Shown here: positions 31,965 to 58,284 of the stretch, one piece after another | Numbering within the stretch: the first letter of the stretch is position 1 | How the letters are laid out: each line of letters starts with the position of its first letter | Source of the DNA: a plasmid | Strand: one strand, 5' to 3' | Sequence record: NZ_AP023324.1 | Length of the DNA: 64,000 nucleotides | The notes under the pieces: model-generated | Database searches by the model: none | What the model saw: only the letters and a program-made list of their open reading frames with translations | What the model was told of the DNA's origin: nothing | Made by a program: the position numbers and the translations under genes

Positions 31965-33154
31965 TCAGGTCGTAGCAATCGCATACCGAGGAAGTTCACT
32001 TTGATTATTAACAATAACTTCAGCGCGGGCAACTTCATATGCAAAATTACGCAGAAAATGACCTCGAGCAAAACGCTGTGCATTAGTGATCGCAGCCTCT
32101 GGGTCAAAGCTTGGGAGCCAAGTATCAAAGCGATTTAGTGCGTCGATCAGCGATTCTGCGGTCTGTTCATAAAAGTGAATGCCTGTCACGCCATCGATCA
32201 CTGTTTCCGTGCCGCCTCCGCGGCCGAAGACGACGACCGGACGACCAGCTGCCTGAGACTCGACCGGAATGATGCCGAAGTCTTCTTCGGCAGTGAAAAT
32301 CAGTGCGGAGGCTCGAGCATAGGCAGCCCGTAGGTCGTCGAAGCGCATCCGCGTGGTAAAGCGCACGTTTGGACCAGCTCGTGCCTTCAGCATTTTTAAC
32401 ATTGGGCCATCGCCGATGACGTGCAGTTTGCGGCCGGTTCAGTGAAGGCATCAACTGCTATATCAGGGCGCTTATAGGGAACGAGTTGGCTGATCCAGAC
32501 GCACTCGTCGCTGACATCGTCCGTTCGTTGGAACAGGTCGACATCGACTGGCGGATAGACGACGCTGGCATCACGCCCCCAGAATTTGCCGATGCGACGC
32601 CGGACAAACTGGCTATTGGCAATGATGAGGTCGGGTCGTGAGGCGCTTGAGCGGTCCCAGGCACGCATACGCGGCGCAATCAATTTCAAGTACAGCCCGG
32701 CCAGACGCCCGCTGGCAGCTCGATAGGCATGATACTGATCCCACAGATACCGCATAGGCGAATGGCAATAAGTGACGTGAATCGCGTCGGGTCGGGTGAT
32801 CACGCCTTTAGCCGGGCCAGCCTCACAGCTAATGACCAAGTCGTAGGCGCTGAGGTCGAGCGCCTCAAGCGCACCAGGCATTAGTGGGAGGTATTTCTGA
32901 TATTGTCTCCGGGCGAAGGGTAGCTTGGCAATCGCTGTCGTAAAGATACGGTGTCGCTTAATAGTCTGCGACAAGGCGGAATGATCGACAACATGGGTGA
33001 AAATGTCGGCATCCGGGTACAAGTCACAGATTCGCTCCAGTACGCGTTCACCACCGCGCATTACCACCAGCCAGTAATGGATGATGGCGACCTTGCGAGG
33101 CCTGACTGGAGCAGGAGCAGGGACGTCAGGCATCGGGGGCAGGGCGGAGGTCAT
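31965..33154 (-). CDS. GT4-family glycosyltransferase (frame break near 32400); the 3' region is AT-rich
   Basis: C-terminal text ...FTAEEDFGIIPVESQAAGRPVVVFGRGGGTETVIDGVTGIHF (the E-x7-E region). The N-terminal half reads VAIIHYWLVVMRGGERVLE. Confidence 0.7.
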
Positions 33155-33223: not shown

Positions 33224-34236
33224 TTACAGGCGGGGCGGCGTTTCCTGCTGGTCTAGCAGGGTCGCCTGCGCCACCCATCGCCGTCCACCTTGCCCAAGCG
33301 CGAGGCCGAAGGCCGGCAACAGGCCGAGCTGTTTCATGACGAGATAGGCTATAACCGGCGCGCCCATGCCGATCGCCGTGCACAGGACGAGATACAGCCA
33401 ACTGATGGGCGGCACGTGCAAGATTTTCATCAAAATGATTCGCGCACCAGCGCCGGCAAGAATATGCATGACGTAGATTGCCATCGACATGGTACCGATC
33501 GCCACCAGCGCGGCCACATGTTCCAGCCGCTGCGAAATCCATAGCATCACCACGATCCCACCGATAGCGGCAGGCAGCATGAGTACGGAGTTGTAGTTGC
33601 TGAAGCCATGATGATGGGCGACGGCGATGGCGGCGGCGCCCAGCAGCGTTAAGCCCGCCGCAACCCCGCCACCTATGCGTAGCAGGTCACGCAGCTTCGG
33701 ACGACCCATCGCCATTCCCGCAACGAAGAAGATCGGAAAATGTAGTAATTGATGGCCAAAATTGTCTTTCGGTAGCCATTCTCCGATCAGGAAGGCAGCC
33801 AAGGCGGGACGAAGAATAGCGGCAGTGGCAGGACGCTGGCCAGCATCATGAACAGGAATAGCGCATATAAGAACCAGAAAGGTGAAATAGGTGCCCAGGC
33901 GATGTAAAGCATTTGACGGGGGTCAAAGGCATTGTTGGTGACATGGCTGAGTACGGTCATGATGGTGCCCGACAATAGAGACCAGAGCACATAGGGATAC
34001 AGCACGGAGGCGATTTTGCTGCGTCGAAAATAGGTCATCCCTTTGCCAAGGCTGTTTGGCACGTTGAGACCGGCCAAAAACATGAACAGTGGCATATGGA
34101 ATGTGTACAGCGCGAAATCGAATAACTGCCAGCGGACATCCCGAAGCGTCCCCGCCGACACCAACCCACGCTCCATGTGGCCGAGCACGACCAGGAATAT
34201 TCCTATACCCTTCGAGGCATCCTGGGGGCACCTCAA
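33224..34236 (-). CDS. Acyltransferase-3 family membrane O-acyltransferase. Its first approximately 30 codons lie at 42058-about 42150 on the far side of the transposon.
   Basis: ...DASKGIGIFLVVLGHM...FHMPLFMFLAGL... is followed by multiple TM helices. The reading frame continues across the Tn boundary: RC of 42058-42150 gives ...LTNQPPSPQRWPTTSPQVYETATNKLSRSARYIWQ|DASKG. Confidence 0.7.
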
Positions 34237-34266
34237 GGTTTGTCATATGGACAGCGGCAGTCGGAA
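34224..34266. repeat. Tn3-family left terminal inverted repeat
   Basis: See the transposon entry; it starts with the GGGG typical of the family. Confidence 0.8.
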
Positions 34267-34370
34267 CAAATGGTCAACAAAAGCCTGAGCGTTGCCGCAA
34301 AGTATATTAAGTTTCGTGGGTTTGTGAGGTTGGACGAGTTGGAAGTTACCGGATCACCTCTCGTGATGTT

Positions 34371-35194
34371 TCACCCGCGGAGCTCGTAGTAGACGATCTG
34401 CCATCCATTCTTGGGACCGCGCCACTGGGTGATCTGAAAGCTATGGGCTTGTGCAGACCCGTCGAGGACGCGGCTACTCCACCGTAGCGTTTCATCGTAA
34501 CTGCTTCCGGACGATAACGCACCCGCTATGCGCCGAATGGGCAGCTTGGCGGGGAGCCTGCGGATGCGTCGGCCATCGTTGCCGACAAAGATAACGTCTT
34601 CGGCCACGCTTCGTCTTGGAACAGCCAACCAGTCGACCTGTTTGCCGGCCTGCTCCTGTCGCAAAACAGACGCGATCTCTTTCGCATCGCTAACGGCTTG
34701 GATTTGGAGCTGTTCATTGGTGAGTTTTGCCGAGCACTCAGGTTCGATCGCTTGTAAACTTTCTGCCGCTAATGCCTTCGATCCATCCCGACGATAGTCG
34801 TCGATTTCCAGCGCCACCCCTCAGCACTGTTCCGCCAAAGCGTCTTATATGATCCAACTCGATTTCCGCCATCGTACAGCCCGCCGATAACAACTGCCGA
34901 CCCGCTCGGATCACAGGACGGAAAGACAAGTTCGGGTCTGCGCTCGGCATGGCTCTCGACACTCATCATTGTGAGCCACCACCTTCGGCTACTCTCGGCT
35001 GCTTGCAACATGCTGGCCACAGATGGAGAGCGCGCGGTTTCGGGCGCATGTTGTATTGGCCAGGGGTCGCTTTGTGGACCGAAACTGCGTGCCGCTGCCT
35101 GACGGCCACTGGCAAGTACAGCTTCCGAGTAGGCCCGCTCCGCCTCCAGCGCGGAATTCGGCGAACTTGCCGCTAGTAGAAGCGCGAAGATCAT
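34371..35194 (-). CDS. Secreted hypothetical protein with two NTF2-like/DUF4440-like halves (one frame break near 34800); transposon cargo
   Basis: Signal peptide MIFALLLAASSPNSA. Each half ends in a DUF4440-like text: ...VGSYKTLWRNSAEGWRWKS and ...SFQITQWRGPKNGWQIVYYEL. Confidence 0.4.
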
Positions 35195-35214
35195 GGCGAA
35201 ATCCTACTCCTCAA

Positions 35215-35818
35215 TCAACGTGTCGAGCGATGTACGGGCATCTGCGCCGGATGGTTGAGCGCCCGATAGAGCGTGGCATGATGACACTTCAGCAGCTTCG
35301 CCGCTTCGCGCACCGATGTGCCTTCGCCGACGAGACGCTGTCCGAGCGCGATCTGGTCCGGAGTGAGCTTGGGCTTACGCCCGAACTTCACGCCGCGCGC
35401 CATGGCTGCCGCGCGGCCGGAACTGGTACGCTGGTGGATCAGCTCGCGCTCGAACTCCGCGATGCCGGCGAACACGGTGAGCACCATGCGTCCCGCAGGC
35501 GTGGTCGTGTCGGCCCGGGCTCGGCGAGCGAGCGCAGCCCGCTCCCGCCTCGTTCAGCTTCTCGGCGATGTCGAGCAGGTCGCGCGTCGACCGCGCTAGG
35601 CGATCGAGCCGGGTGACCACAACCACGTCGTCGTCGCGCAGCTGCTCCAGCATCCGGTCGAGTTCCGGTCGGGCGCGCTTGGCGCCGGACACCTTCTCCT
35701 CGAATGTCCGCCGGCATCCGGCCGCCTTCAGTGCCGTCTTTTGAAGCGTGAGATCCTGATCGTCGGTAGATACGCGCGCATAGCCGAGGAGCATGTCGCA
35801 GATGTGCATTGGAACACG
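35215..35818 (-). CDS. Serine recombinase (resolvase/invertase family); frame break near 35480
   Basis: MLLGYARVSTDDQDLTLQKTALKAAGC...VVVVTRLDRLARSTRDLLDI...VLTVFAGIAEFERELIHQRTSSGRAAAMARGVKFGRKPKLT...C-terminal HTH. Confidence 0.8.
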
Positions 35819-35929
35819 GCTGATTAGCAACAGACATTTGCGACAGCGTCCGCCCTCGTGGCGTGACCGGTTGTAAACGCTCGCGCTAAGTGGCGGCATT
35901 CTGATCGCGCTATTTGTCGGCGAGCGTCG

Positions 35930-36506
35930 CTACGCGGCTACCGGCTTGGTCTCGGCCGATCGCACATAGGCGTAGAGTGTTGGCTTGGAGATGCCGAGCA
36001 TCGAGCAAATCTTGGCGATCGGCATCGTGTTCTCGTGGTAGAGCCTGACGGCGGTCGCGCTTGTCCTTGCCGAGTGCGGCCGGCCGGCCACCCTTCTTGC
36101 CGCGAGCGCGGGCTGCGGTGAGACCGGCACGGGTCCGCTCGCGGATCAGGTTGCGCTCGAACTCCGCCAATGCCCCGAACAGGTGGAAGGTAAGCTTGCC
36201 CGACGTGGTGGTCGTGTCGATCGCCTCGTGCAGGCTCAGCAGCCCGACCTTTTCCTCGTCGAGGTAGGTCATCCATCCGATCAGATCACGGAGCGAGCGG
36301 CCGAGCCTGTCGAGGCGCCAGACCACCAGTGTGTCGCCGGCGCGAAGCAGCTCCTTCACCTTTTCCAATCCAGGGCGAGCGGCAGTCGCCCCGGAGGCCT
36401 TGTCGGTGATGACCTTCTCGCAGCCGGCAGCCTTCAGCGCATCACGCTGGAGGTCCGGTTCTGCTCGGCGGTCGATACGCGGGCGTAACCGATTTTCATG
36501 CGTAGG
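35930..36506 (-). CDS. Second serine recombinase (resolvase family); 2 frame breaks
   Basis: (M)KIGYARVSTAEQN...LQRDALKAAGCEKVITDKASG...LVVWRLDRLGRSLRDLI...LFGALAEFERNLIRERTRAGL. The C-terminal HTH is recovered as ...AVRLYHENTMPIAKICSMLGISKPTLYAYV. Confidence 0.75.
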
Positions 36507-36611
36507 GCCGGTGGCGCCCGATCGGGCGCGGTTTGGGAAGAAAGTCGTCATCGGCAGGTCTATGTTGCCCTAGTTTTCTTTACCGGGTAGATTTACGTCG
36601 AACAGGCCGGT

Positions 36612-38080
36612 TTGGCAACGCGAGCGGACTCGCATGGCGATGGGCAGGCAAATCTCCGTTTTCCTTACCTGCGACACGGACCGTCGGCGGTGACGCATCC
36701 GGCGCTTGTCCCGCCGCTGGCGATCGAGCGCTACCGCGTCCTTGAACCGCACCTCGCCGATGGCATCCCGCTCGCGGACCTCGCCCGCACCGGCACGCTG
36801 AGCGAGCGGACGTTGCAGCGCTGGCTCGGGCGCTACCGTGCCGAAGGACTTGCCGGTCTCGCGCGTCTGCCGCGCAACGATCGGGGCAGGCTGCACCTGC
36901 CGGAACATCTGGTCGAACTGACCCGCACTCTCGCCACCAAGCGCCCGCGACCCCCGGTCGCCGCCATTCACCGAAAGGTGCAGGAACTCGCCATCGCGCA
37001 TGGACACCGAACCCCCAGCTATGCGGCCGTCGCGCGTGTCGTCAGGGCGATACCGGCAAGCCAGATCGCCGCAGCCTCCGATCCGGCCGTCTACCGCGAC
37101 CAGCACGAGCTAGTGCATCGGCGCGAAGCCGCGACCTCGAACGAGATGTGGCAGGCCGATCATACCGTTCTCGACATTCTCGTGCTCGATGATGCCGGAA
37201 CCCCGGTGCGTCCTTGGCTGACCGTCATCGTTGACGATCACAGCCGAGCCATCGCCGGTTACTTCCTCAGCCTCGATGCCCCCAGTGCCCTCAACACGGC
37301 GCTCGCCTTGCGGCAGGCGATCTGGCGCAAGCCCAATCCCGAATGGATCGTCAGCGGCATTCCCGAACAGCTTTACGTCGACAACGGCTCGGATTTCATC
37401 TCCGAGCATATCGAGCAGGCGTGCATCGCCCTCAAAATCCGCCTCATCCATTCGCTGCCGGGGCGTCCTCGCGGGCGCGGCAAGATCGAGCGGCTGTTCC
37501 GCACCATCAACGACATGTTCCTGCCCGACCTGCCCGGCCACCTGATCGCGGGCAAGCCGCTGTCGGCGCCAGTGCTCACGCTCGACGAGCTGCGCGCCCG
37601 CTTCGAGGCGTTCGTGTGCGGCGTCTATCATCGTCGCCCGCATGGCAGCACCGGCGAACCGCCGATCACGCGCTGGCAGAAGGGCGGGTTCCTGCCCGCA
37701 ATGCCCGACAGCCTTGAACAGCTCGACATGCTGCTCGTGCACGTGCCCAAGCCCCGTAAAGTGCTGCGCGACGGCATCCGTCTGATGGGCAGGCGCTATG
37801 TCGAACCCACGCTCGCGGCCTTCGTCGGCGAGCAGGTCGAGGCGGTCTATGACCCCGCGACCTGACCGAGATCCACGTCTACCACCAGGGGCCGGTTCGT
37901 CTGCCGTGCGCTCAGCTCCGAGCACGCTGGGCACCCGTCGTTGCGCGCGATCCAGCGCGCCCGGCGCGGCGCGAAGGAGCGCGACAAGCAGGTGCCTGCC
38001 CCCACGGAGACCTTCGATGGCGACCAAGAGGATACGGCTTCCCGGCCCACCACCTACCGAGGGCTCCGGCTCTACGCCGC
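36612..38080 (+). CDS. TniA-like DDE transposase (Tn5053/Tn402 TniA or TnsB-type integrase core); the start and C-terminus are uncertain
   Basis: MWQADHTVLDILVLDDAGTPVRPWLTVIVDDHSRAIAGYF...YVDNGSDFISEHIEQA...RPRGRGKIERLFRTIN. It is followed by a TniB-like ATPase. Confidence 0.65.
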
Positions 38081-38893
38081 TGACGATTGAGTTCCTGGTC
38101 GAGCAGCCGTTCACGGCGACCCGCGAACATGCCCGGTTCGTCGAGTTTGCCGAAGCCTGCGCGCACTACCGCTATATCGGCGTGTGTCATGGCCGGCCGG
38201 GCGTCGGAAAGACGCGATCGGCGCGCGAGTTTTCCAGCTTCCCCGACCGGGGAATATGCCGCGCTCCGTCCCATTGCCGCGCTCCTTGGCGAAAAGGTCG
38301 CTCGCTGCCGCGCCGTCTTCTACACCGTGTCGGTCAGCAACACGCCCAAGACGATCGACGCGGTGTTGGGCCTCAACCTCATTAAGCTGGGCTATGCCCG
38401 GCTGACGGTCGCGGGCGGCTCGCAGGACGAAATCACCCATGACGCCGCCCGCATCGCCTGCCCCCTCGTCATCGTCGACGAGGCCGACCGCCTGACCATA
38501 AAGTCGCTCGAACATCTCCGCGACATGGCCGATCGCCACGGCTTCGGGCTGATCCTGATGGGTATGCCGGGCTTGGAGAAGCGCCTCGCCCGCTATGCCC
38601 AGCTCTACTCGCGGATCGGCTTCGTCCACGAGTTCAAACCGCTTACCGAGACCGAAATGCGGCTGCTGCTCGCGACCCACGCCGGCGATTTCGGGATCAG
38701 CTTCGACCCGGCCCAACTCGACGCGATCGAAGCGCAGGCAGCCGTGATCCGCATCACGCGCGGCAACTTCCGGCTCATGGAGCGCCTGTTCGCGCAGATG
38801 CGGCGGATCATGACCCTCAACCGCGTCGAGGAGGTCACCGCTGACATCGTTCAGGCCGCGCGCGATTGCCTCGTCATCGGACCCGGCAACTGA
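38016..38893 (+). CDS. TniB-like AAA+ ATPase (transposition helper); frame break near 38240
   Basis: Walker A ...YRYIGVCHGRPGVGKTRSARE. Walker B region LVIVDEADRLTIKSLEHLRDMADRHGFGLILMGMPGLEKRLARY. Confidence 0.65.
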
Positions 38894-39030
38894 CAAATAG
38901 CGCGATCAGAACGCCGCCATTTAGCGCGAGCGTTTACAACCGGTCAGGGCCGCTGTCACGAAACTTGAGAGTTACGCGACACCTCGCACGTGTCGGCCAT
39001 AAACTATACGCTCCCGGACAGGGGTGATCG

Positions 39031-41989
39031 ATGGCCAGACGCGATCTGTTAACGGGCGACGAACGCCGCGCGTTGTTCGGCGTGCCCCTCGACCATGCCT
39101 CGCTCGCCAAGCATTACACGGTTGCCGATGAGGACCGGCCACTGATCGAAGCGAAGCGCGGCGACGCCAACCGGCTCGGCTTCGCGCTGCACCTCGCCCT
39201 GCTGCGTCATCCCGGCTTCGGCATACGCCACGACGATGTCGTCCCCGATTTTCTGATCCGGCACCCGCGCAACTCGACATCGCGCCCACAGCGTTCGAGG
39301 GCTACGCGCATCGCGCCCAGACCCGGCTCGAACACGCACGGGAGGCGATGGAGCGTTTGCGCCTGCGCGCGTTCGAGGCGGCCGACGTCCCCGGCGCGCT
39401 CGGCGCAGCCACCCGCGCGGCGGAAGCGACCGAACGGGGCAAGCCGATCGCCGCGGCAGTGCTGGGCCATTTGCGTGCTGCCCGGATCGTTCTGCCCGCG
39501 CCCGCCCGTATCGAGCGGATCGGGGTGGCGGGGCGCGCCATGGCGCGCCGCCTCGCGGCCGACACGCTGGTCGATGCGCTTGCTCCGGAGCAGGTGACGG
39601 GGCTGGATGCGTTGCTGATCGTGGACCAGGATCGCAGCACGACGCCGCTCGCGTGGCTGCGCGACACGTCGGACAGCCCGACCGCGCGCAATCTCGCCGG
39701 CATTCTCGCCCGGCTCGCGCACGTGCGCCGGCTCGGGCTCGACCCGGGCATGGCCGGCCGCATCCACGAGCACCGCTTCGAGCAGCTCGTGCGCGAAGGC
39801 CACGTCGCGCCCGCGTTCCTCCTGTCCGACTACTCGCTCCGCAGAAGGCGCGCGACACTCGCCGCAGCCGTCATCGACACGGAAGCGCGGCTCGCGGACG
39901 CCGCGATCGAGATGTTCGGCAAGCAGACCGGCCTCCTGTTCGCCAGGGCGGGGCCGCGCAGAAGCGCGGCATCGAGGCGACCACACGCGACGTGAACCGG
40001 CTCATGCGGCTGCTGGGCGCCACGGTCGGCGCACTCCGGGTCGCGCGCGAGGACGGGTTGGACGTCTGGGCGGCGCTCGACGACGGGGTGGGCTGGACGA
40101 GGCTTCTGGACGCCGAGAGCGAGGCGACCGCGATCGCCGACCTGACTCGCGACGAGCCGCTGATCCGCGCGGCGGGGCGCTACATGACGATGCGGCGCTA
40201 CGCGCCCGCGTTTTTTGACGCGTTCCGGTTCAAGGCGGCAGGCTCGCGCGACGGCGTGCTCGGCGCGATCAAGGTCGTGCGCGCGCTGAACGCGACCGGG
40301 CGGCGAGACGTACCGGCCGATGCGCCCATGCCGTTTTCCAGAAAATGGAAGGCGGCGATCACCGAGGGCGGCGTCATCGACCGCCGTCGCTACGAAACCG
40401 CCACGGTCGCGACCGTGCGCGAGCGGCTCCAATCGGGCGACCTGTGGGTGGAGGGTACGCGCGAACACCTGCGCTTCGACAGCTATATGCTCCCGCCCGG
40501 CAAAGCGGCCGAGATCGCGCTCACGCTGCCGTTCGACACCGACGTCGGCCGCTACTTGGAGGGGCGCGCCAGGCTGCTCGACTGGCGGTTGCGCCGGTTC
40601 GCAGGCTCGCTGAAGCGCGGCACGCTCGACGGCGTGGAGCTGCGGGGCGGTAACCTCAGGGTCAGCCCGCTCGCGGCCGTAACGCCCGCTGCGGCCGACA
40701 GGCTGGACGCGGCCGTCGACCGGCTCATGCCCCGCGTGCGCATCACCGAGCTGCTCGCCGAGGTGGAAGCCCGCACCGGGTTCCTGTGCGCATTTCCGGA
40801 ACTGCGCTCGGGCCGCGCCCACTCCAACCCGCAGGCCGTGCTCGCCGCGATCGGCAGACGCGACGAACCTCGGCATCGAGCGCATGGCCAACGCCAGCCG
40901 GGCGTCACCTACGCCCAGCTCGCCTGGACGCATGGCTGGTACGTATCGGAAGAGAATTACGCGGCAGGGCTGCGCCATCTGGTGGACGCGCAAGCCGCGC
41001 TGCCGCTCACGCGCGTGTGGGGCGACGGCACCGCGTCGAGCTCGGACGGGCAGTTCTTCCGCTCGGGCAGGCGGGGCGCGGCCGGCAGCACCAACGCGCG
41101 CTACGACCGGGAGCCGGGGCAGAAGATCTACGCCCATGTCGCCGATACCTACGCGCCCTACCATGTCCGGCTGATCTCGGCGACCGCGGCGGAGGCGCCC
41201 TATGTGCTGGACGGGCTGGTCGCGCACGGCTGCGGCATCGAACCCGCGACCCACTATGCCGATACGGGCGGCGCGTCCGACCACGTGTTCGCGCTCGCGC
41301 ACCTACTCGGCTTCCGGTTCGTGCCCCGCCTGCGCGATCTAGCCGATCGCCGGCTCGGCCTGTTCCCGGGCACGGCCCGCCCCGAGGCGCTCGCGAAGCT
41401 GATCGGGCGCCCGTTCAACATCGCTGCCATCCGCGAAAGCTGGGACGAGATCGTCCGGCTCGCCGCGTCCGTGAAGGCCGGCGTGGTGCTACCGTCGGTC
41501 ATGCTGAAGAAGCTGGCCGCGTACCGTCGCCAGAACCGGCTCGACTTCGCGCTCCAGGAGCTGGGCCGGATCGAGCGCACCCTGTTCACGCTCGACTGGC
41601 TAGAATCCAGGGCGCTCCGCCAGCAGTGTCAGGCTGGGCTCAACAAGGGCGAGGCGCGTCACACGCTCGCCCAAGCCGTGTTCGTCCACAAACAGGGCCG
41701 CCTGCGCGATCCGCAGTTCGAGAACCAGGCGCTGAAAGCGTCCGGGCTGACGCTGGTCACCGCCGCGATCGTGTACTGGAACACGCTTTACATGGGCCGC
41801 GCCGTCGAGCATCTGCGCGCCAGCGGCGAGCCCGCGCCCGACGAGCTGCTCGCCCATGTAGCCCCGCTAGGCTGGCGACACATCAGCCTGACCGGCGATT
41901 ACCTCTGGCAAAACGCCGCTGCCGAGCTCGATCAAGACGGCTACCGCGCACTCAACATCGCCGGCGGACCCGGAGCCAAGGTGGCCTGA
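39031..41989 (+). CDS. tnpA: Tn3-family transposase TnpA (about 985 aa); 2 frame breaks (about 39290 and about 39960)
   Basis: N-terminal DUF4158-like MARRDLLTGDERRALFGVPLDHASLAKHYTVADEDRPLIEAKRGDANRLGFALHLALLRHPG. The long C-terminal DDE region reads ...TGGASDHVFALAHLLGFRFVPRLRDL...LVTAAIVYWNTLYMGRAV. Confidence 0.85.
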
Positions 41990-42009
41990 GCCGCCCTGTT
42001 CGCTACCTG

Positions 42010-42052
42010 TTCAGCTTACCGCTGTCCGTGTCACAAACCTTGAGGTGCTCCC
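42010..42052. repeat. Tn3-family right terminal inverted repeat
   Basis: Reverse complement matches IRL at about 36 of 43 positions. Confidence 0.8.
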
Positions 42053-42274
42053 ATCCTGCCATATGTAGCGGGCCGACGATCGGCTGAGTTTGTTGGTTGC
42101 TGTTTCGTATACCTGCGGTGAGGTTGTTGGCCACCTCTGCGGCGAGGGGGCTGGTTCGTCAATCATCTAGAAATCTTTCTGACATTCGCACGATGCTAGC
42201 CCGGCTTTGATGCGGGGGATAGACGAAGGCCAGTCTGCCCGCCCATTCCTGATGATAGCGTGTCACCCGCAGGC

Positions 42275-43400
42275 TTAGCGACGATCCCCGGTATTTTCCA
42301 ATGGGCTTTGGGGAAGATGGGATGTACTGCAGGCAATAGCCTCAATCGCGTCGGCTAACGTATCAGCCGATGTTATCCAACTGAACCGGGTCAGTTGAGC
42401 ATGTCCCACAGCGATCCGCTGCGCGCGCCATGCCTCGTCCTCCGCCGCACGCTGCATCCATCGTGCCAGCGCTCGATCGTCATGCGGATCAAAATATTCG
42501 GCTGCATCGCCACAGGTTTCCCTGGACGGCCTGCGCCGTACTAGCCAGTACCGGGCAATCGTTCGCCATTGCCTCCAAGGGAGGAATACCAAATCCTTCG
42601 TACAGGCTAGGAAAGATGAGCGCGCGGGCCGAACGCATCAACCCGGCAACTTCGGCATCGTCCAGTCTGCCCGGCAGAATGAGTCCTGGCCCCTTGGGTG
42701 GAAGATGGCCGTGTCCGAACACCGACCCGTCTAACCGTCCGACCGCGACGAGCCGGATGGGTGAGGGCTGCAACCGCGCCAGGGCGCGAATGGCGACGGC
42801 TAGATTTTTGTTAGGGGCAATATTGCCAAGGATCAGGAAATAGGGGGTGTTTTCCAAATGAAGACGATCGACGATCTTCATATCAGGTGTGATGGAAAGG
42901 TGTTCCGCGCCGTTCTTGGCAACTATGATCTGTTGACTAGGCACGCGGAGCACTTCGGCCAGCTCGCGCTGTGAAAATTGCGATACCGTCGCCAAGTGCG
43001 CGCGCCGGGCCAGCAGACGATCGATCGTATTATGCACCCAAGCATAGGTCTTTCCGAAATTCTCCGGGTGCCGCTGTACCGCAGCGTCGTGTATCACCAC
43101 AAGCTGGCGGCGCAACGTAACCGGCCCGGTCGCACCCAAGCACAAAGCGGCCCCCCTGCGCGCTGCCCAAGCAAATTCCAGCTGATCCCAGACATGCCCG
43201 CCGCGTCTCCCGACGACCCGTTGTTCGATATGCCGCAATCCGGCATCGCGCGCACCGTGCGGGGTAAGTATGACGTAAGGGTTGGCCGCCCGGCCTGCGC
43301 CTACGCGCTGGTCGAGGCGCGGACGATCTCGTTGGCATAGCGTTGCACGCCGCTCAACGTCTGGGTCAGGAAACGGCCGTTAATATAGATGGTGCGCCCG
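42275..43400 (-). CDS. GT4-family glycosyltransferase (frame break near 42540; N-terminus uncertain)
   Basis: ...FILGNIAPNKNLAVAIRA...IFPSLYEGFGIPPLEAMANDCPVLAS... Confidence 0.6.
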
Positions 43401-43554
43401 GTCGTCATCCCGTCCCCTGTGCATTGAAAGCTGGCGATATACCCGTCCGCATACCTTGGCGATGCCGCTCACCGCCGCATAGTCCGGTGGTGCGGCGGGT
43501 CAACCCATCAGGATTCCGTGCGCACCCGTAGCAGGGCCACGCACGCGGACGTAA

Positions 43555-44990
43555 TTATCGCGGTCGTGCCGGCGAGGGGAGGTTCTGACCGTTAAAGTGA
43601 AACTGCCTCCAGGACGTCCGCTTGAGGTCAATGTCGCCGCCCAAGGCCTCTCCCGGCGCGTCCGTCAGTCCCACCAGATCAATATGCAACCAAGCAAAGT
43701 GCCGCGCGCCGTCGCCATGTATATTGTCGGTCAGGCGTGGGCGCGCCATCCGGGTGTCGGTTGCCGTCAGGCGTTCGTAGCTGTGCGTACCAGTCATGCG
43801 TGCTGACAGGATGAAGGGAACGCCGTCGCATTCCTGAATGTCGATGAACCCCGAACAGTCGCGCCCACCCAAAAGCGTAGCATAGCCAGCGGCATGGGGC
43901 CCGCGAATATGATCGAGCTTTAGGGCATAGCGAATGCGGTTGAGCTGCGCGCTGTTGCTGTCGAGTGCGCAAGCCGCCCGATCACCCATGCCGATCACGT
44001 GTCCGGCGATCTCGCCGTCAGAGACATCCTGCACGCTGCTGGAGATTCCCAAGCGGGCGGGGCGGTCACGGCCGCTCAGCAGGATGATCGGCTGGGCGAA
44101 GTCGCGGGCCAACCCAATGCCTGTGACGCATTGCGAAGCAGTAAAATCGCGAATCCACCAGTCGCGCACCCCGAACGTATCAAAGGATCCTCGCTGCACA
44201 CATAGATGGCAGCCGCTGAGGACCGCGAGATACGTGGGCGCAGATGGTGGATGGTTTGGCCGCCTACGATCGACAGGCCGCGCGCGTGGGCATCAGCGAC
44301 CACTAGATCTTTGGTCGCGATGTTGCGGCACGTCCGACCGTCGCCAAAATAGCTGACGACCGCGAACCCGTCGTCACCCGAGGTGAAGACGCTGCAGTTC
44401 GTGAAGGACAGGTCCTCAGACCCGTGGGTGACATGGATACCGTCGGCGCGCGTGTCTTCAACTCGCAGCCCGGCGACGCTGCCGTCGTGTGCACCGAAGA
44501 ACATTGCGCCCGATCCCGCAAACCCCTTGGCAGTCCCATCGGCATCGATGCGTACGTTAGAGATGCTGAAACCCGATGCGGTGACGACCAGCCCGCAATG
44601 CGTCAATTGAGTGCCACGTTTTGTGCTAGTGCCCGTCAGCCTGACGTTGCGTAGCGCCGTCCCTTTTCCAGATAAGAACACCGTGCCCTGATCCGGCGAG
44701 GTCGCGCGCAGCGTGCACCCGCGCCCGTCGAACGCAATGCCGTCCAGCCGCAACGGACCCGTATGGGCATAGACCGCCGGGCTTCGCCCAGGATCGTACC
44801 GATCCCTTGCGCCTTGGCCTGTTCGACCGCCGCGTTGATCGCGCCGGTCTGGTCGCGAGTGCGATCCGATACGATGCCGAAAGAGGCAAGCGTCCGGGTA
44901 GCCTGTGGCCGCCCCGGCCTGATCAGTCAGATCGCGGCCCGGGCTGGGATGGCCATCAGAAGGCGTTGTCATGCCGGATGACGAAGATCG
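43555..44990 (-). CDS. Right-handed parallel beta-helix (pectin-lyase-fold) protein, a candidate polysaccharide lyase or depolymerase; frame break near 44150
   Basis: Repetitive beta-helix coil text: ...NVRLTGTSTKRGTQLTHCGLVVTASGFSISNVRIDADGTAKGFAGSGAMFFGAHDGSVAGLRVEDTRADGIHVTHGSEDLSFTNCSVFTSGDDGFAVVSY. Confidence 0.5.
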
Positions 44991-45017
44991 TGCGGAAAAT
45001 GATCCAGATATCGCGGT

Positions 45018-46347
45018 TCATCGACCAGTTGCGCAAATATTCGGGTCGGATGCTAGACGGTTGGATAGGTCACTGGCTAAGATCGTCGCCCCGCGAAAGC
45101 CACGAATCTGGGCTAGACCCGTCACACCGGGCTTGACCACGTGGCGGTGCCGATAACGATCGTCGATTTCCCAGTACAGGCGTTCGGCGGCCTTGGCCGA
45201 CAGGGCGTGCGGGCGCGGTCCAACGATGCTCATCTCGCCACGCAGCACGTTAAGCAACTGCGGAAGTTCGTCGATACTATTGCGCCGAATGAATTGTCCC
45301 ACCCGCGTCACTCGGCTGTCATTGCGGGCGGTCAGAACGCTAGCCGACGGGTCGCACTTGTCGGTATGCATGCTGCGGAACTTGAACATCATGAACAGAA
45401 CGTTGTCTCGGCCGATGCGCTGTTGCCGGAACATAACCGGGCCGGGCGATTCTAGCTTGATTGCGATGGCCACCGCCAGCAGCACCGGCCCGAGCAGGGT
45501 CAGCGCTAACAGCGAGACCACAATGTCGAACGCGCGCTTAATAATTCGAGCGCGCAGGTGCAGTGGGCCCGTTGAGACAACCAGCGTACGCAGGCCGCGA
45601 TGTTCGCTGATCCCCAGAACGCCAATCTGATCCACCTCTGGTGCGATGATCTGCCCGTCGACCGCCATGCATTTCAAAACATGTGACCATGAGGGTACGC
45701 GATCGTCGTTACAGGCCACAAGTACCCGGTCGGCCTTACCGATCAGCTTCGCCAAGCGGTCATATTCCATCGGATCGTCAGTGAGAGGGTCGAACCCGAT
45801 TGAATTCGTATTGATCACCTTATCCTGTGGCGCGGCTTCCGGATATATTGTCGACGAGCACGATCTGGCTGAACACCTGATCATTCAACCGGCGCAGGAT
45901 CATGCGTCCGACGAATAGCCGTTCGACAATTAGTAAGGTTATTGAGCAAAAGGTGCCGCTCAAAAAATCACGCGCGAGAAATTCTCGCCTACCTTGAAAG
46001 AATAGGCAACGATCAGCGTCACCGCAGCTGCGAGACCAGAGCGCGTACGGCCTTGAACGCGCCGACGCGCGGGTCGCCGAGCGTGGGATTACTATAGGCG
46101 CCGTTAATACCAGCAAAGCCAGGAACGTCGGAATGATCACCGACATCATGGTTACGCCATGCGATGCAAGCCAGTCACCGATATAGAGCTTGTTGACGAC
46201 GAAGAAGCTAGCCGCGACAGTGCATATATCGACGACGGTCAGCGCAAGGTAATAGCGGATCCTACGATATTCCATGTTCTGGATGACGGGCATGTCAAAA
46301 ATATCCGCGTTGGCCCGATCGTGCGTCCCACTGATGTGCGTGGTCAT
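45018..46347 (-). CDS. Polyprenyl-phosphate glycosyl-1-phosphate transferase (WbaP/ExoY-type bacterial sugar transferase); frame break near 45850
   Basis: C-terminal catalytic text FDIVVSLLALTLLGPVLLAVAIAIKLESPGPVMFRQQRIGRDNVLFMMFKFRSMHTD...IDELPQLLNVLRGEMSIVGPRPH. N-terminal TM helices are present. Confidence 0.75.
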
Positions 46348-46499
46348 TTCATAATCGGCAAGGATGCGCTGGTGTTGCGGGCGAAAGATGACGTCCGGGC
46401 AAGATGAATGTGAAGTTTCACCACATGGTCCGGGAAAGGCAGTGCTGTCTACGCCCCGGATCTCGGTATCTGTCGCGGCGTATGACAAAACGACAATGC

Positions 46500-47774
46500 T
46501 AATGGCCTGCTGGGCAGAATTTGGCAAGCGATATGCAGACATGAATGGGGCCGGGCCCGTCGATCGTTTCAGGTGGTGGCATGCAGTCGCTGACGGATCA
46601 TCCGGCGGACTACCAGCGTGATCGTCACACTGAGGGCCGTGTTTTGAAAAAGCACCGCTAGCGCCACCGTTTCCATCACCCCTAGCATCTGGGTGAGCGA
46701 CAACGTTAGGCAGAAGGTCGCGAAACCGATGCCCCCCCCGATCACCCACCAGCGTTCCTGATGTAACGCGGTTACAGCCAAACCGAAGGGTGAAGCGGCA
46801 CAGGTCACCATTGCGCTGAGGAACAGCGGCGTTGCGGGCAACCGGGATCACCAGCGTCTTCCATCCCAGCATCCCCATCACCACTACCCCGACGATTGCA
46901 GAGGGGATGTAGATCAGGGCGAACAGGGCCGACAGGCGGCCGTTCTGGCGGATGATCTTTACTACCATGGGCATGTCATTGTTTGCTGCGGCAGTGATGA
47001 TCCGCGGGGAGTAGGCAATCGCCAGCCCGTGCAGGAACACCGAAATCGCCGAGGACAGCTTGCGCACCACCTCGAACGTTGCGACGCGCTGCGGCGCCAA
47101 GCAAGGTCAGCGCCAGCGTCGGCATATTTTCAGTCGCCGAGCTGATGATGCCGCTAAACAGGAAGGTACGGCTTTCCAGCCAGAGTAGGCGGATCTGTCG
47201 TCGGTCAATGGTCATCGCTCCCGCCGGCGCGACCCGCGCAGCATGAGCGAGAGCAGGGCGGGTGTCATATAAGCGAGCGCCATAATAATCGCGATCGCCT
47301 GCCAGCGCAGCGGCCATCGCATCAGGGCGCTGACGACAAAGCTGGCCGAGGTGATTGAGGGGGGCAGGATGTAGAACAGCAGAACCGAGGTCATCTGCCG
47401 CTCGTGTGCGATCTGGCGGACCTCCTCCAGCTTGGTAAGCAGGATTGAAAGCACCGCTAGCGCGAAGATGAGCGCCCCGTTGGCGAGGCGAACCCTGTCC
47501 CAGCCAGCCCGGCCATGACCATGCCGACGATCGACATGAAGACCATAACGATATGCGACGCAGGTATCTGCGCACGATCGGGAAGCAGCAGTGCACGCAT
47601 ATAGCCTTGGCTGGCATATTGCGCCACGGGCCCGACGATCATCATCGCGAGCGCAAAGGAGGTGGCGCCAAGGCCATATTGCCGTGCGTCGAGGAAAATC
47701 GCGGCGGTCAGCGACGGGAAGAAGCCGACGCCCCCGGCGATCAGGCGCAGGAACAGCAGGCGGGACACCTTCAT
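46500..47774 (-). CDS. Wzx-type polysaccharide flippase (polysaccharide biosynthesis protein family); heavily frame-disrupted (at least 4 fragments)
   Basis: The fragments MKVSRLLFLRLIAGGVGFFPSLTAAIFLDARQYGLGATSFALAMMIVGP..., ...LSALFALIYIPSAIVGVVVMGMLGWKTLVIPVA and ...TLSLTQMLGVMETVALAVLFQNTALSV tile the region on one strand. Confidence 0.5.
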
Positions 47775-47901
47775 CGCGCAGCATCATCCAGTGGGGCTAC
47801 CATCTCGGCTGTGACCTGACGCCATGTCCGGGGATGGTCTGGCCAGCGGCGTTCGCATGCCAGTGCCCGCTCGACCGCACGCAACAGCGATGCGTCATCG
47901 C

Positions 47902-48870
47902 CTACCGTATAGCCGAAGCGAAGCGGATGACCCCTTGCGCGAAGTCCGGGCAGATCGCGGGCAGGCCGATCGCGGCGAACTGCATTAGTTTCATCGAGGT
48001 GTCGACGAGATAGTCCGCCATGCTGGCCGACCGGTAGGGAGCGATCCCGAAGCGGGCATGCTGGATATAGGGGATGGTGTCCTCAAATCCCATTTCCGAA
48101 ATCCAGTGAAGATTTTCGCGGTCCTGCCCGTCATGGCCCGATCCAATGACGTGAAAATCAATATGCGGAAAGGCCTTGGCCGCGACGTCGAATACGCTTG
48201 GATCGAACAACATACTGCCCACCGAAACTGCCGAAGTGCGTCCGGCATAGGGATCGGGCCGCTCGGCAAAAAAGGTTTCGGCCAGCCCGTGGGGGATGAT
48301 CCGGTGGTGGGCGATGCAAGTATGGTCGGCCGCCATGCGCGCGGAGGGCAGGCGCGCATAGTCGATCAACGGCGCCGCCTTCTCCAACGCGTGCTCGTAG
48401 AAGCGTGCCATGCCGATGGTGCGCAACGTGTCCGATGCGCTGTAGATGATCCGCGCGTCCGGATTGCGGCGCGCAATCTCGGGGATTAGGGCGACGGCGC
48501 TCCCCGATTCCACGATGATGGTGCGCGCACGGCGGACCATGACGTTGACCCGGTGCGGCATGATGCGGGCATAGAGGGCACTGGCTACCGCGTTCCACGC
48601 GGCCAGTCCCGCCGGGCGCAGGTTCACGGGATGCAGCATCGAATACCATAAATGGCTTTCTACCGCACTACCCGCTGGCGAGGGGACGTTGCGCAATTCG
48701 TGGCGCTGGTCGCGCCCCCGCAATGTCGACAGTGCGCTGGAATGGGTGGCGAGGAACATCGTCTCGCCGAGGCGGCTAAGTTCATCGGCGATGAAGTGCA
48801 GGTCGACGCGCCTCTTCGTGCGATAATCGTGGGTGGCAGTGACGATTAGATAGGGGGGATCGAAGGTCAT
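47902..48870 (-). CDS. GumK-like (GT70) glucuronosyltransferase
   Basis: 322 aa. The text blocks LIVTATHDYRTKRRVDLHFIADEL, AVSVGSMLFDPSVFDVAAKAFPHIDFHVIGSG, HARFGIAPYRSA and YLVDTSMKLMQFAAIGLPAICP correspond to the conserved GumK blocks as I recall them from Xanthomonas GumK. This needs alignment confirmation. Confidence 0.65.
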   Translation of the reverse strand: MTFDPPYLIVTATHDYRTKRRVDLHFIADELSRLGETMFLATHSSALSTLRGRDQRHELRNVPSPAGSAVESHLWYSMLHPVNLRPAGLAAWNAVASALYARIMPHRVNVMVRRARTIIVESGSAVALIPEIARRNPDARIIYSASDTLRTIGMARFYEHALEKAAPLIDYARLPSARMAADHTCIAHHRIIPHGLAETFFAERPDPYAGRTSAVSVGSMLFDPSVFDVAAKAFPHIDFHVIGSGHDGQDRENLHWISEMGFEDTIPYIQHARFGIAPYRSASMADYLVDTSMKLMQFAAIGLPAICPDFAQGVIRFASAIR

Positions 48871-48872
48871 CT

Positions 48873-50034
48873 TTAGTGCTGGGTCCCGAAGCCGGACAGA
48901 TAGGCGGCGTGTTCGATAGCCACTGCCGACCGTGCAAATCCCGCCGCATGGGCGATGCGATCCTCCGGGGTGCCTAGGGGTGTGGTCGTCGACAAGTGCC
49001 GGATCATCGCATCAGCCAGCGCGACGGGGTCGCCGGGGGGGACCAAGGTGCCCAGCTCAGGCCGGGTTATGATGTCCTCCGGCCCGAAATCGCAGCGCGC
49101 GGCGATGACGGGCAGTCCGGCGCTCAGCGCCTCGACGATGGCTACGCCGAAGCCTTCCCAGCGCGAGGCGCTGACGAAAGCGCTGGCGGCTGCCAGCTCT
49201 TGCGATGGGTCAGAGATCATCCCCTTGAGGATCACGTTGCGCGTTAAGTCCAGTGTCTCGACCAACGCGGCCAGCGCCTGATGCTCCGGCCCGCCGCCAA
49301 CGATGGCGAAGGTCGCCTGGGGAAAGCGATCGACCACTGGCGGAACGCGCGGATCGCGATGTCATGCCCTTTCTGATGAGCTAGGCGTCCAACGGTCACG
49401 AAATGCTGAGCCTGCGGCGCGTGTCCGCCGACTGGGGGAAGCTGGCGCACCGGATTGGGCAAATAGCGGACCGCGCCCTTTCCGCCCAACGCGCCCAAGG
49501 TCGATCGCGCTAGGCGGTGATACCGTGACGATCCCGGCAAACCATGTCGCGGTCGCACGGTATAGAGAGAAGACGAGACGCGACTTTACCGACATCACGC
49601 GTTCGATGTCGGGGTTGCCGTGCAGATGCAGGACGATCCGGTCGCGACGTCCGTGGAGTCGGTTGTAGATCAGGCTGAGCACTGCGTTTTCAAACTGTGG
49701 TATGACGATAACGTCGAAATCGTTCGTGGCCAACACGCGGTGCAGTCCGGCCGGGACGTCACGCACTCGATCGCCCGGCCCGAATGATCCGGTAGGGGGC
49801 GTCGCGAACCTCGGGATAGTCAGTGAAATAAATGACCGACACTGCGATCGATCCGGCATGGTGTTCGACCAGTTCGGATGCGAGCTCGTGGGTCACGCGC
49901 TCCATGCCCGCGAAATGCGGGGAGGGGGGAACGAGATAGGCGACCCGGACACGCGAATTTTCAGTGAAAACGGGGGCAGAGACGAGGTTTGCGTGAGGCA
50001 GGGTTGAAGGCGGCGAGGTCATGGTCATCCACAA
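48873..50034 (-). CDS. GT4-family glycosyltransferase (at least 3 frame breaks)
   Basis: N-terminus RVAYLVPPSPHFAGMERVTHELASELVEH. C-terminus ...FVSASRWEGFGVAIVEALSAGLPVIAARCDFGPEDII. Confidence 0.65.
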
Positions 50035-50413
50035 GAGGCTTATGTGCTGACCGCACCCGGTATGGGTACGGATCCTATCCGTGCGGCGGGCATGTTAATG
50101 AAGGTACTGTTTCGTTAATGGGGAACGTTGTCGACCGCGCGGTTCGTGGCGTTCCTCGCCTTGTCGGTATTAATGGTTGTTCGTCACTCTCAGACATCGT
50201 TGGAGGGCATATGTCTGCTGGCGCGGCCCTATGCCACCAAAACCGATGCGCATAAAGGTCAGATCCTCAAATGATCCGCTTGCCTGTCTCTTTACCAGCC
50301 ATTCCGCGTCTTATATTGGACGCCAAGATAAATGAACACGGTGCGGCGGTTCGTATCCCGGTTTGCTCGTGCCACCCGGTATCGCCCCGGGCGTATGAAG
50401 GAAGCGATACCTG

Positions 50414-51717
50414 ATGTCTCCCGGCCTCTCTCCCAGACCGATTAAGGTGCAATGGTGGCATTCCCCCGCGCTGCTGATCCTCGGGTTTACGCTTCCCTTT
50501 TTCCTGCTGGTCGCTGCAATCACGCCCAGCGTCATCCGCAACGCGCCAGTCCTCGCTTCGCGCGAGATGTATCTGACCCTGTTCCGGGTAATCCAAGCGA
50601 TTAGCCTGCTTCTCGTATTCGCTGCGGGCGCCGCCTATGCGGGCAGGAAAACGTTCATCGGTAAGGTGCAGCTGTACGACGGCTGTATGGACTTCCTATT
50701 CTACCTGACGTTCGCCGCTTATATCATTTGGTTCGGACCACTCGTCCTATCCAATCCTCGGCTGATTTTGGAAACCTTTACCGGCACCGTCGGCGCGATT
50801 TATGACGTCCGTGACGAGGCACAGAATATTTCGGGTGTCACGACCGCTACGCAGTTCGGAATTTCCTATGCAATCATCTATGCAATCAAGCGGTTTCAAG
50901 ACGGTGAGATTGTGCCCCGCAAATATACCATTATGCTGGGGATCATCGGAGGGCTGGCCCTGTTCCGAGCTACCGTATACTCAGAGCGTATTGCAGTCGC
51001 AGAAATATTTATTGCAGCGTTTGTGATTTTTGTTGTTTCTTATCAATCCAGAAAACGCTATGTTAGATTAGGAATAAAATATTTTCCATTTTTGCTCTAT
51101 GCGGCAGCACCAATATTTTGCGGTGTTTGAATATCCGGAGCTGGCTCAATCACTATATTGATATTTATGACAATTTCTGGCATTTTGTCATGGATAGATT
51201 TTCATTGTATTATGTTACGTCACTCAATAATATATGTGCATTGCTAGATTATTCGCAGAATCCGACATATGATGGCGGCTGGACGTTGAACTGGTTGTAT
51301 CGATTTCCCGTCATTGGTCCGCTGCTATCCGATGAAGGCGCCAATGGTGGGGGCGTTGGACATTCGTGGTTTCTAAAATTTTTGGCTGCTTATGCGTCGC
51401 CGGAATTTAACAACACCACTGGTGTTTTGACGGTTGTCTATGACTGGGGCTGGCCACTTGGGCTGGTGCTGATGGGAATATACGGAATATTGGCGGGGCT
51501 AACCTTTGCGTCTTTTAAGAGCGGCAATGGCGTGCTGCGCTACGTCTATCCTATATTCTTATACTCGATCCTCGAGCTTCTGCGTATCGGCTATATCTAT
51601 GACGGCCGCGCCGTTGCCGCGATCATTGGGATCATTATCGCGATCGGATTCTGGAGGAAAGCTGCGGCAATGGCACCACCAATGACGATGGCCCCGGGCG
51701 GTCTTCGGCCACGATAA
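50414..51717 (+). CDS. Polytopic membrane protein, candidate Wzy-type repeat-unit polymerase (EpsG-like); frame break near 51120; AT-rich
   Basis: At least 9 predicted TM helices with no catalytic soluble domain. It lies in an exopolysaccharide locus next to an O-antigen-ligase-family gene. GC content is markedly lower than the surroundings at about 51.0-51.3 kb. Confidence 0.4.
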
Positions 51718-51813
51718 GCAGCCGTAGCCGATAAGACGGTTTCGTTTCGGATTGGCATTGGCTACACGGTGCCCTAATGCGTTTTTAAATCTTTCACTTC
51801 CTCCATACGCTCG

Positions 51814-53145: not shown

Positions 53146-53210
53146 CCGCTCGTATAGACGCCATGATTTGCACTGCCTTGCGATCCATTACCGTGGAAGC
53201 TTCCGACCTT

Positions 53211-53921: not shown

Positions 53922-53932
53922 GGCCGGATTTG

Positions 53933-56112: not shown

Positions 56113-56115
56113 GTT

Positions 56116-57797: not shown

Positions 57798-58284
57798 AGT
57801 ATTTGCAAAATCTAAGTTACAATTCAACATAAATGGCGCTGTTACTGTGATAAAAATTATTTTATAATGCGCTGTACGTCTAATCTTACGCAGGTACGTT
57901 AATTCTAAGCGGTAGACCTGCAGACATCGGCATTGACTACGGATAACGTAAGAATAAAATAGGGCGTAGGATAAGGGGCGGCCACGGTTACTCCCTCATC
58001 GCATAAGTTTTTACTTAAAAGCACGCTATTGTTAAAATAGGCACGGGCAAGAGGCCTTGCCTGATCGATCTACGTGCATTTGTCGCGGTGCCAATGGTAC
58101 AAAAGACATTTTTTCATTTGGTTATGTACAAGCAAGCCCTTTCCGCTGCGACTATCTGATAATGTCTTTTATCAAATTAATGACGTATATGCTTGTATGT
58201 AATAAGGGCCGGGCTGAGGCAGATGGTGGTCGTTTTCTGACCAACAAAGCCAACGTGCCTGATAATCGTCTATTAGGTCGGCCA

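Follow-up and report, generated by a model that had tools for sequence, protein, structure and literature searches.

The question raised by the plasmid record NZ_AP023324.1 is whether positions 34224-42052 of the 64,000-nucleotide stretch that we analyzed (hereafter the window) hold a single chimeric transposon in decay or more than one intact element. Within a Tn3-family transposon lie two serine-recombinase genes, a DDE transposase gene, an AAA+ ATPase gene and a passenger gene, and the original prediction took this arrangement for a Tn402-like element captured at a resolution (res) site, of which a tni remnant was left. We find it very probable that the region is instead a composite of two complete transposons, in which an inner Tn552-family element was nested by transposition in the res site of the Tn3-family element. 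The pair was formed by a known mechanism, and the inner element, although new, is of a kind already known. The main value of the result is correct annotation, in that an apparently chimeric, decayed transposon with an extra recombinase becomes two intact, well-understood nested elements.

Structure of the composite

Two relatives found by megablast of plasmids are informative for structure. One of them, in Sphingomonas sp. gentR (NZ_CP144671; locus L001), is a simple Tn3-family element of 4.77 kb with the order 274-amino-acid hypothetical gene, tnpR, intergenic region, tnpA. In alignments to this element, window positions 34224-35871 are 99.7% identical and positions 38939-42052 are 99.2% identical, and both alignments share the same 6 bp of L001 (4646-4651, ACCGGT). 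Because the flanking alignments overlap by these 6 bp, positions 35872-38938 constitute an insertion with a 6-bp target duplication, and excision of this segment together with one ACCGGT yields the uninterrupted tnpR-res-tnpA of NZ_CP144671. The part of the original prediction that placed a nested element in a res site is borne out by these observations; its Tn402-like character is not, as described below.

The inserted unit measures 3,067 bp in the window because of consensus deletions, and 3,073 bp in all reference copies; it has the termini TGT...ACA and is 99.6% identical to the reference copy in locus L002 (4645-7717). It is bounded by terminal inverted repeats (IRs) of 47 bp, not the 25-bp Tn402-type repeats that had been proposed as a check. 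The IR at the recombinase end (35872-35918, plus strand) matches the reverse complement of the IR at the ATPase end (38892-38938, minus strand, read directly) at 45 of 47 positions. Two TCGCGCTA repeats are present at each end of the element and are candidate transposase-binding motifs. Between the IRs, a BinL-like serine recombinase of 190 amino acids is encoded on the minus strand (35930-36499; Pfam Resolvase 1e-46 plus HTH_7 in the intact copy), followed by a 190-bp divergent intergenic region (36500-36689), a p480/TniA-like DDE transposase of 466 amino acids on the plus strand (36690-38090; Pfam rve, Mu-transpos_C and a helix-turn-helix domain), and a p271/TniB-like AAA+ ATPase of 292 amino acids, also on the plus strand (38017-38893; Pfam AAA_22, 8e-21). 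The transposase and ATPase genes overlap by 74 bp, and the stop codon of the latter lies within the terminal IR. The functional motifs of all three proteins are conserved: the catalytic serine region of the recombinase, the DDE motifs WQADHT, DNGSDF and GKIER of the transposase, and the Walker A (GRPGVGKT) and Walker B (VIVDEADR) motifs of the ATPase.

These three genes fill the 3,073 bp, with no further open reading frame (ORF) or annotation, and tniQ was not found in any copy examined. Because the three genes fill an IR-bounded unit, the second resolvase is part of the inserted element, and that element is complete and not a remnant. The reported absence of tniQ therefore stands; that of tniR does not, the second recombinase being its equivalent. 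Both minus-strand recombinase genes, which are adjacent as had been noted, match Pfam Resolvase (PF00239), with E-values of 7e-27 and 5e-39 for the window ORFs and of 4e-45 and 1e-46, plus HTH_7, for the intact reference copies; the inner recombinase is 46% identical to the neighboring TnpR. The divergent intergenic region, which contains an imperfect direct duplication of about 85 bp (direct repeats D1-D3 in L002 6916-7056), presumably holds the promoters and the element's own res site, by analogy with resL of Tn552. Lacking a TnsA-type nuclease, the element probably transposes replicatively; resolution of the resulting cointegrate would fall to its own recombinase, acting at a res site within this 190-bp region.

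The surrounding element has the parts expected of a Tn3-family transposon. Its left inverted repeat (IRL; 34224-34261, plus strand), at which homology to both L001 and L002 begins, starts with GGGGGCACCTCAAGGTTTGTC and matches the reverse complement of the right inverted repeat (IRR; 42015-42052, minus strand, read directly) at 31 of 38 positions; these imperfect 38-bp repeats have the first letters GGGGGCAC. The tnpR gene, a serine resolvase gene on the minus strand whose coordinates (35215-35794) were mapped by alignment, gives Pfam Resolvase and HTH_7 matches in the intact L001 copy (3993-4574). It is followed by the tnpR-proximal part of res (35795-35871), with half-sites TGTCGCAGATGT and ACATTTGCGACA (inverted repeats I1 and I2 in L001 4574-4669), which ends with the left ACCGGT (35866-35871). 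Beyond the inner element, the right ACCGGT (38939-38944) opens the tnpA-proximal part of res (38939-39030), and a 28-bp palindrome there, TGTC(A/G)CGAAACT-N4-AGTTACGCGACA at 38954-38981 (inverted repeat I3 in L001 4661-4688), is the candidate crossover site I. The plus-strand tnpA gene (39031-41989; Pfam DUF4158 and DDE_Tnp_Tn3) is present as three ORFs in the window and is 99.2% identical to the reference; the intact protein of about 990 amino acids scores 923.5 bits against the NCBIfam model transpos_Tn3 (cut-off 500) and matches Pfam DDE_Tnp_Tn3 with an E-value of 4e-136.

In the uninterrupted L001 sequence, four TGTCGC-type 12-bp half-sites are present, one pair of which forms the 28-bp palindrome (4661-4688) typical of crossover site I; together they make up a candidate multi-subsite res for the outer element. 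The inner element entered the spacer that separates this palindrome from the accessory half-sites, and the duplicated bases (L001 4646-4651) lie between the half-site at 4614-4625 and site I. In its TnpA with DUF4158 and DDE_Tnp_Tn3, its serine TnpR, its intergenic res with a 28-bp palindromic site I, its IRs of about 38 bp beginning GGGG and its 5-bp target duplication, the outer element resembles Tn3-family transposons with divergent tnpR and tnpA genes and a passenger. It differs from them in that the passenger is an orphan 274-amino-acid protein without an assigned family. No named counterpart transposon was found in the comparisons made.

The site at which the whole composite sits can also be read base by base. 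The 5-bp sequence ATCCT occurs on both sides (34219-34223 and 42053-42057, the latter read directly), and an empty site for the composite exists in the Sphingomonas paucimobilis FDAARGOS_908 plasmid NZ_CP065671 (locus L135), where an acyltransferase gene is intact and ATCCT is present once (3954-3958), exactly at the junction. Since NZ_CP065671 has the intact gene and a single ATCCT, we conclude that the composite transposed into approximately codon 37 of this Acyl_transf_3 gene. With the TnpA match, the 38-bp IRs, the ATCCT duplication and the empty site, the location of the recombinase genes within a Tn3-family element, as originally predicted, is confirmed.

Two transpositions account for the composite. 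The outer 4.77-kb element (IRL, passenger gene orf274, tnpR, res, tnpA, IRR) inserted into the acyltransferase gene of a plasmid-type exopolysaccharide cluster with a 5-bp duplication, and the inner 3,073-bp element transposed into the spacer of the Tn3 res with a 6-bp duplication. On this Sphingomonas replicon, a Tn552-related three-gene element has entered a Tn3-type res site by a nesting route already known. We considered whether the two elements could instead have come together by recombination, site-specific or homologous, between res sites or between copies of an element carried by different replicons. Such rearrangements do occur, many copies elsewhere having one conserved and one variable flank and no duplication, but the window flanks carry a perfect 6-bp direct repeat and jointly rebuild an uninterrupted res base for base; neither flanks derived from two different res sequences nor a missing duplication was found in the window copy. 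This origin is accordingly highly improbable, and transposition of the inner element into res is preferred.

Apparent frameshifts

All six genes of the composite (34371-41989) are frameshifted in the window, each being split into two or three ORFs, and the region could be taken for a graveyard of truly frameshifted, immobile pseudogenes. Comparison with near-identical references points elsewhere, in that the differences are indels and paired substitutions at CCAGG or CCTGG, with the remaining indels in homopolymers. Relative to the references, 14 of 24 CCWGG sites are altered (10 are intact), as against none of 33 control CCSGG sites. Over the whole window, CCWGG occurs 104 times, compared with about 212 expected, and CCTGG is altered more than CCAGG on the plus strand. 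The types of change, CCTGG to CACGG and deletions of one to four bases, are unlike known outcomes of mutation and typical of nanopore consensus calling; the nanopore consensus error profile is headed by Dcm-type motifs, with homopolymer-length errors next (PMC6591954).

The apparent errors can be placed individually. In tnpR they lie at 35516 (CCAGG) and 35537 (homopolymer), in the inner recombinase gene at 36052 and 36456 (both CCAGG), in the inner transposase gene at 37856 and 37891 (-1/+1 homopolymer errors), in the ATPase gene at 38248 (a 2-base deletion in CCTGG), and in tnpA at 39264, 39948, 40852 and 40899 (all CCWGG). Further examples of CCWGG or homopolymer errors are found at 36129-36130, 38113-38114, 39338-39339 and 39879-39880. 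The same splitting affects housekeeping-type neighbors of the composite, a GT4/GT1 glycosyltransferase gene (31965-33154) and the Acyl_transf_3 gene (33224-34236), which form two ORFs each and have intact homologues in NZ_CP065671.

The frameshifts are almost certainly consensus-calling errors, and the genes are most likely intact in the organism; an unpolished nanopore-type assembly is implied, and the host probably methylates CCWGG. Genuine decay of the composite is very unlikely. As a practical warning, ORF splits in this assembly should not be trusted for pseudogene inference.

Family assignment of the inner element

In pairwise protein comparisons, the inner transposase is 41% identical to Tn552 p480 over 440 amino acids (BLASTP, E=2e-124), the ATPase is 38% identical to p271 over 265 amino acids (E=3e-70), and the recombinase is 53% identical to BinL (E=4e-68). 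When all plasmids were searched by tblastn, the closest transposase relatives outside the sphingomonads were from Bacillus and Staphylococcus, at 41-44% identity over 93-97% of the protein, whereas integron-associated TniA proteins were 29-30% identical over 60-70% of it. The staphylococcal match is Tn552 itself in pSM39, with the order blaZ-blaR1-blaI-bin-p480-p271 and a second recombinase gene 137 bp beyond p271. The prediction of a DDE transposase and an AAA+ ATPase gene is therefore upheld, but their assignment to the Tn5053/Tn402 family gives way to Tn552. Tn552 is described as carrying p271, p480 and bin, as producing 6-bp direct repeats, as inserting at res sites that act as hotspots, and as undergoing later inversions and deletions (PMC3276174).

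Judged by sequence, the inner element is a complete, cargo-less member of the Tn552 family. All three of its transposition proteins are homologous to those of Tn552 over their full length; like Tn552, it has neither TnsA nor TniQ, its target duplications are 6-7 bp (6 bp in Tn552), and it has inserted in res beside a resident serine-resolvase gene, as Tn552 has in pSM39. The long Tn552-type IRs with repeated motifs and TG...CA ends are also present, but are shorter, 47 bp compared with about 116-120 bp. The differences are that the inner element is 3.07 kb and without cargo, whereas Tn552 is 6.5 kb and carries blaI-blaR1-blaZ; that its recombinase gene is divergent from the transposase gene, these being co-directional in Tn552; and that its hosts are Alphaproteobacteria (Sphingomonadales) and not Bacillota.

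Two other identities have to be weighed. The first is a decayed Tn402/Tn5053-type remnant, from which tniQ and tniR were lost after capture at res, the second recombinase being an extra Tn3 resolvase. Tn5053-family elements are textbook res hunters. The inner element shares with this family a DDE transposase, an AAA+ ATPase and a serine resolvase, a replicative logic, and a preference for the res sites of plasmids and Tn3-family transposons, and distant homology links its transposase to TniA and its ATPase to TniB. However, Tn5053/Tn402 elements have tniQ between tniB and the resolvase gene, 5-bp duplications and 25-bp IRs, their transposase is about 29-30% identical to the inner one over the core only, and the inner element, in contrast to them, occurs in both orientations relative to the resolvase gene. 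Both IRs, the perfect duplication and a constant length of 3,073 bp, never with tniQ, in every full-length copy examined across many genomes, together with the location of the recombinase inside the IRs and proteins far nearer to those of Tn552, speak against a remnant. Completeness, duplication length, IR length and the closer Tn552 homology lead us to reject this reading, which is very improbable.

The second identity, named by the original prediction as an alternative to its own, is an IS21-type IstA/IstB pair. The gene order, a DDE protein followed by an ATPase, is superficially IS21-like, but neither IstB_IS21 in Pfam nor any IS21 model in NCBIfam matched, the domains found being rve plus Mu-transpos_C and AAA_22, and neither the termini nor the length of the duplication is that of an IS21 element. 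We regard an IS21 origin as next to impossible and retain the Tn552 family. No paper naming the 3,073-bp sphingomonad element was found in the literature searched, which the limits of the search may explain; as far as we checked, the element is previously unnamed and labelled only generically in databases.

Targeting of resolution sites

The same 3,073-bp element is present in more than 100 Sphingomonadales assemblies, and in more than 25 plasmids in the megablast search. A scan for its IRs, with one genome taken per species, returned at least 120 genome stretches, almost all from Sphingomonadales. From these loci among the matches listed, and from loci already fetched, 65 distinct junctions were taken with flanks of 1.5 kb; the counts that follow refer to this set. 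Fourteen serine-recombinase genes were found in these flanks, all reading away from the element; measured from the junction, 12 of them have their start 45-129 bp away. The remaining two are the gene in the window flank, where 357 bp was measured because of the frameshifts and the true distance to the resolvase start is 77 bp, and a gene with a disrupted 5' end. The distances cluster at 66-67 bp for Tn3-type TnpR and at 92-95 bp for a second resolvase family, whose members are 80-84% identical.

Insertion events were rebuilt by pairing recombinase-end and ATPase-end junctions through their reverse-complementary ends. This gave 15 insertions among the matches listed, ten with 6-bp and five with 7-bp duplications. 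Eleven of the 15 lie 45-129 bp upstream of a serine-resolvase gene and one lies in the first codons of such a gene; either end of the element may face the resolvase gene (6 versus 5). The pattern is robust, since chance would produce only about 0.2 false pairs in the 957 pairings that are possible. A position-weight analysis of all 58 junction flanks did not find a single shared motif, as is expected if different res families are targeted.

In the S. naphthae plasmid NZ_CP117412, the same Tn3 element carries the 3,073-bp unit at a point displaced by 11 bp and in reversed orientation, flanked by the 7-bp duplication CCTCGTG (4634-4640). This is an independent event at the mirror-image position. 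In two cases, different genomes hold the element in opposite orientations at one res junction, with the duplication at an identical position (L002 versus L064/L086, and L108 versus L032). No IR in these loci is chimeric at two diagnostic mismatches, and independent insertion at the same phosphodiester bonds is for that reason favored over in-situ inversion. Inversion between the element's IRs, which we considered, is less likely in the absence of a chimeric IR, although a crossover within the outer 18 bp could still have taken place.

From these positions we infer that the inner element, as Tn552 and Tn5053-family elements do, hunts res sites. The DNA to which its transposase and ATPase are directed is probably that bound in a complex of resolvase and res. 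The distance of the junction from the resolvase half-sites is nearly constant in two sequence-unrelated res types: in the Tn3-type res it lies 15-16 bp from the GACA core, inside the spacer of about 29 bp between the accessory sites and site I, and in the second resolvase family it lies 92-95 bp from the start codon. The two independent insertions in the same Tn3 res mirror each other about the center of the spacer. A further and tentative proposal, which this near-constant spacing supports but toward which we lean less than away, is that the element is a minimal TniQ-independent, protein-guided targeting system that would read the geometry of the resolvase-res complex. Should the ATPase or the transposase indeed dock directly on a spacer bent by resolvase, no simpler system would be known in which to study target choice by Tn7-superfamily transposons that lack a dedicated selector protein.

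Other copies and mobility

Most plasmid copies have one common flank, with an aspartyl-protease gene and a metal-transport region, and differing sequences at the ATPase end, without a duplication. This points to one ancestral insertion beside an aspartyl-protease/cation-transporter region common to dozens of sphingomonad plasmids (L003-L007, L009, L010 and L012). There, the ATPase-end flank has been swapped several times, for a tyrosine integrase gene, for copper-oxidase genes or for a Tn3 tnpA, the last in one orientation or the other, and the duplication has not been kept. Among the plasmid copies compared, the original GAACGG duplication beside a resolvase gene is retained only in S. paucimobilis FDAARGOS_881 and NBRC 13935. 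Such flanks are what deletion, inversion or recombination at the element after its insertion would leave, as is described for Tn552. In some plasmid copies the transposase gene is broken by another Tn3-family element or by an insertion sequence.

Several copies are present in some genomes, and short-read assemblies collapse the element to contigs of 3,073 bp. Exact 3,073-bp contigs and many contig ends inside the element were seen in L097, L112 and the drafts of Sphingomonas sp. S2M10, S. panaciterrae, S. zeae and S. floccifaciens. This indicates multi-copy, recently expanded populations in those drafts, where some insertions are not beside resolvase genes. The multi-copy genomes and collapsed contigs suggest recent activity.

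Identical IRs also occur in assemblies labelled as non-sphingomonad, all of them short contigs or metagenome-assembled genomes (MAGs): L037 (Umezawaea), L088 (Afipia MAG), L096 (Bradyrhizobium MAG) and L059 (Gammaproteobacteria MAG). Contamination or mis-binning could account for these matches, as could a real spread of the element outside Sphingomonadales.

The inner element, a res hunter of the Tn552 family without cargo, is common in the plasmids of Sphingomonadales, and these plasmids are rich in genes for pollutant degradation and metal resistance. A role as a driver of plasmid and transposon rearrangements in Sphingomonadales is plausible, because the element enters res sites and brings in a second recombinase; the conservation of one flank and replacement of the other in many copies is in keeping with such a role.

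Several observations temper the account of an intact, mobile, res-seeking element nested in an intact host transposon. Three of the 15 rebuilt insertions are not near a resolvase gene, so that targeting is not absolute, and reliance on a bound resolvase is suggested by insertion position. Many copies are without matching duplications, and later rearrangements blur the record. The activity of this or any copy is likewise a reading of near-identity across genomes, of duplications that are still intact and of genomes with several copies. For the res site of the element itself, the intergenic repeats point to a candidate. Finally, the explanation of the frameshifts as consensus errors is strong but indirect, drawn from the pattern of the errors, and some of the frameshifts could be real.

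The passenger gene

The passenger of the Tn3-family element, orf274 (34371-35194, minus strand), encodes 274 amino acids in its intact version (L001 3148-3972); in the window, the loss of one base from a homopolymer at 34807 splits it. It is located 110 bp inside the IRL, at the IRL-proximal end as originally described; the positions of the IR and of the duplication dispose of the alternative that it lies outside the true IRL. Its start is about 20 bp past the stop codon of tnpR, and it is probably co-transcribed with that gene.

No Pfam or NCBIfam model matches the orf274 protein, even at E<=10. It forms essentially one cluster in a collection of 5.8 billion proteins, comprising 94 sequences and found on at least 1,000 contigs, and has nine matches among 1.84 billion representative proteins, four of which are near-full-length distant relatives at 30-43% identity. 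In three of the distant relatives the N-terminal half has a marginal DUF4440 match; the highest-scoring, P0004 (E=4e-5), reaches 24.3 bits, just short of the cut-off of 25.2. Structure prediction gave a predicted local distance difference test (pLDDT) score of 40 from the single sequence and of 51 with AlphaFold and a five-sequence alignment, the N-terminal half being near 70. In a Foldseek search with the model of pLDDT 51, the top matches are uniformly NTF2/SnoaL-like but weak (E>=0.039). The DUF4440/NTF2-like assignment of the N-terminal half is borderline.

The original prediction had described two tandem NTF2-like halves. The N-terminal half retains weak support through its relatives and the 24.3-bit match, but a duplication is unproven: profiles of the N- and C-terminal halves show no detectable homology by hhalign (probability 0.7%, E=0.08 over 35 columns), and profile searches of both halves against PDB sequences returned no match. 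The conserved, hydrophobic N-terminus (MI.ALLLAA..P.SA.EAERAF) is compatible with a signal peptide, which the protein may carry.

Insertion locus and surrounding cluster

The 3' part of the interrupted Acyl_transf_3 gene, identified by Pfam, occupies 33224-34223 on the minus strand, and its first approximately 37 codons are found at 42058-42166; the frame was rebuilt across the junction, and the gene is intact at L135 2958-4067. The flank tested (window 42100-50000) is 97% identical to NZ_CP065671, a 76-kb S. paucimobilis plasmid, in line with a plasmid location of the window. The neighborhood (window 42100-58000 and L135) is an exopolysaccharide/O-antigen-type cluster, with a GumK-like glucuronosyltransferase, a Bac_transf priming transferase, a GT4 glycosyltransferase, a Wzy_C ligase, a Poly_export protein and a GNVR tyrosine kinase. 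Loss of acyltransferase function is the expected effect of the insertion, and acylation of the polysaccharide could change as a result.

Elsewhere in the window, positions 2962-4664 (extending upstream to about 7835) encode an RHS-repeat protein whose C-terminal domain is a nuclease toxin of the LHH (HNH/EndoVII-type) kind. The low-GC (48.5%) ORF that follows the RHS/LHH gene belongs to no family and is likely the cognate immunity gene.

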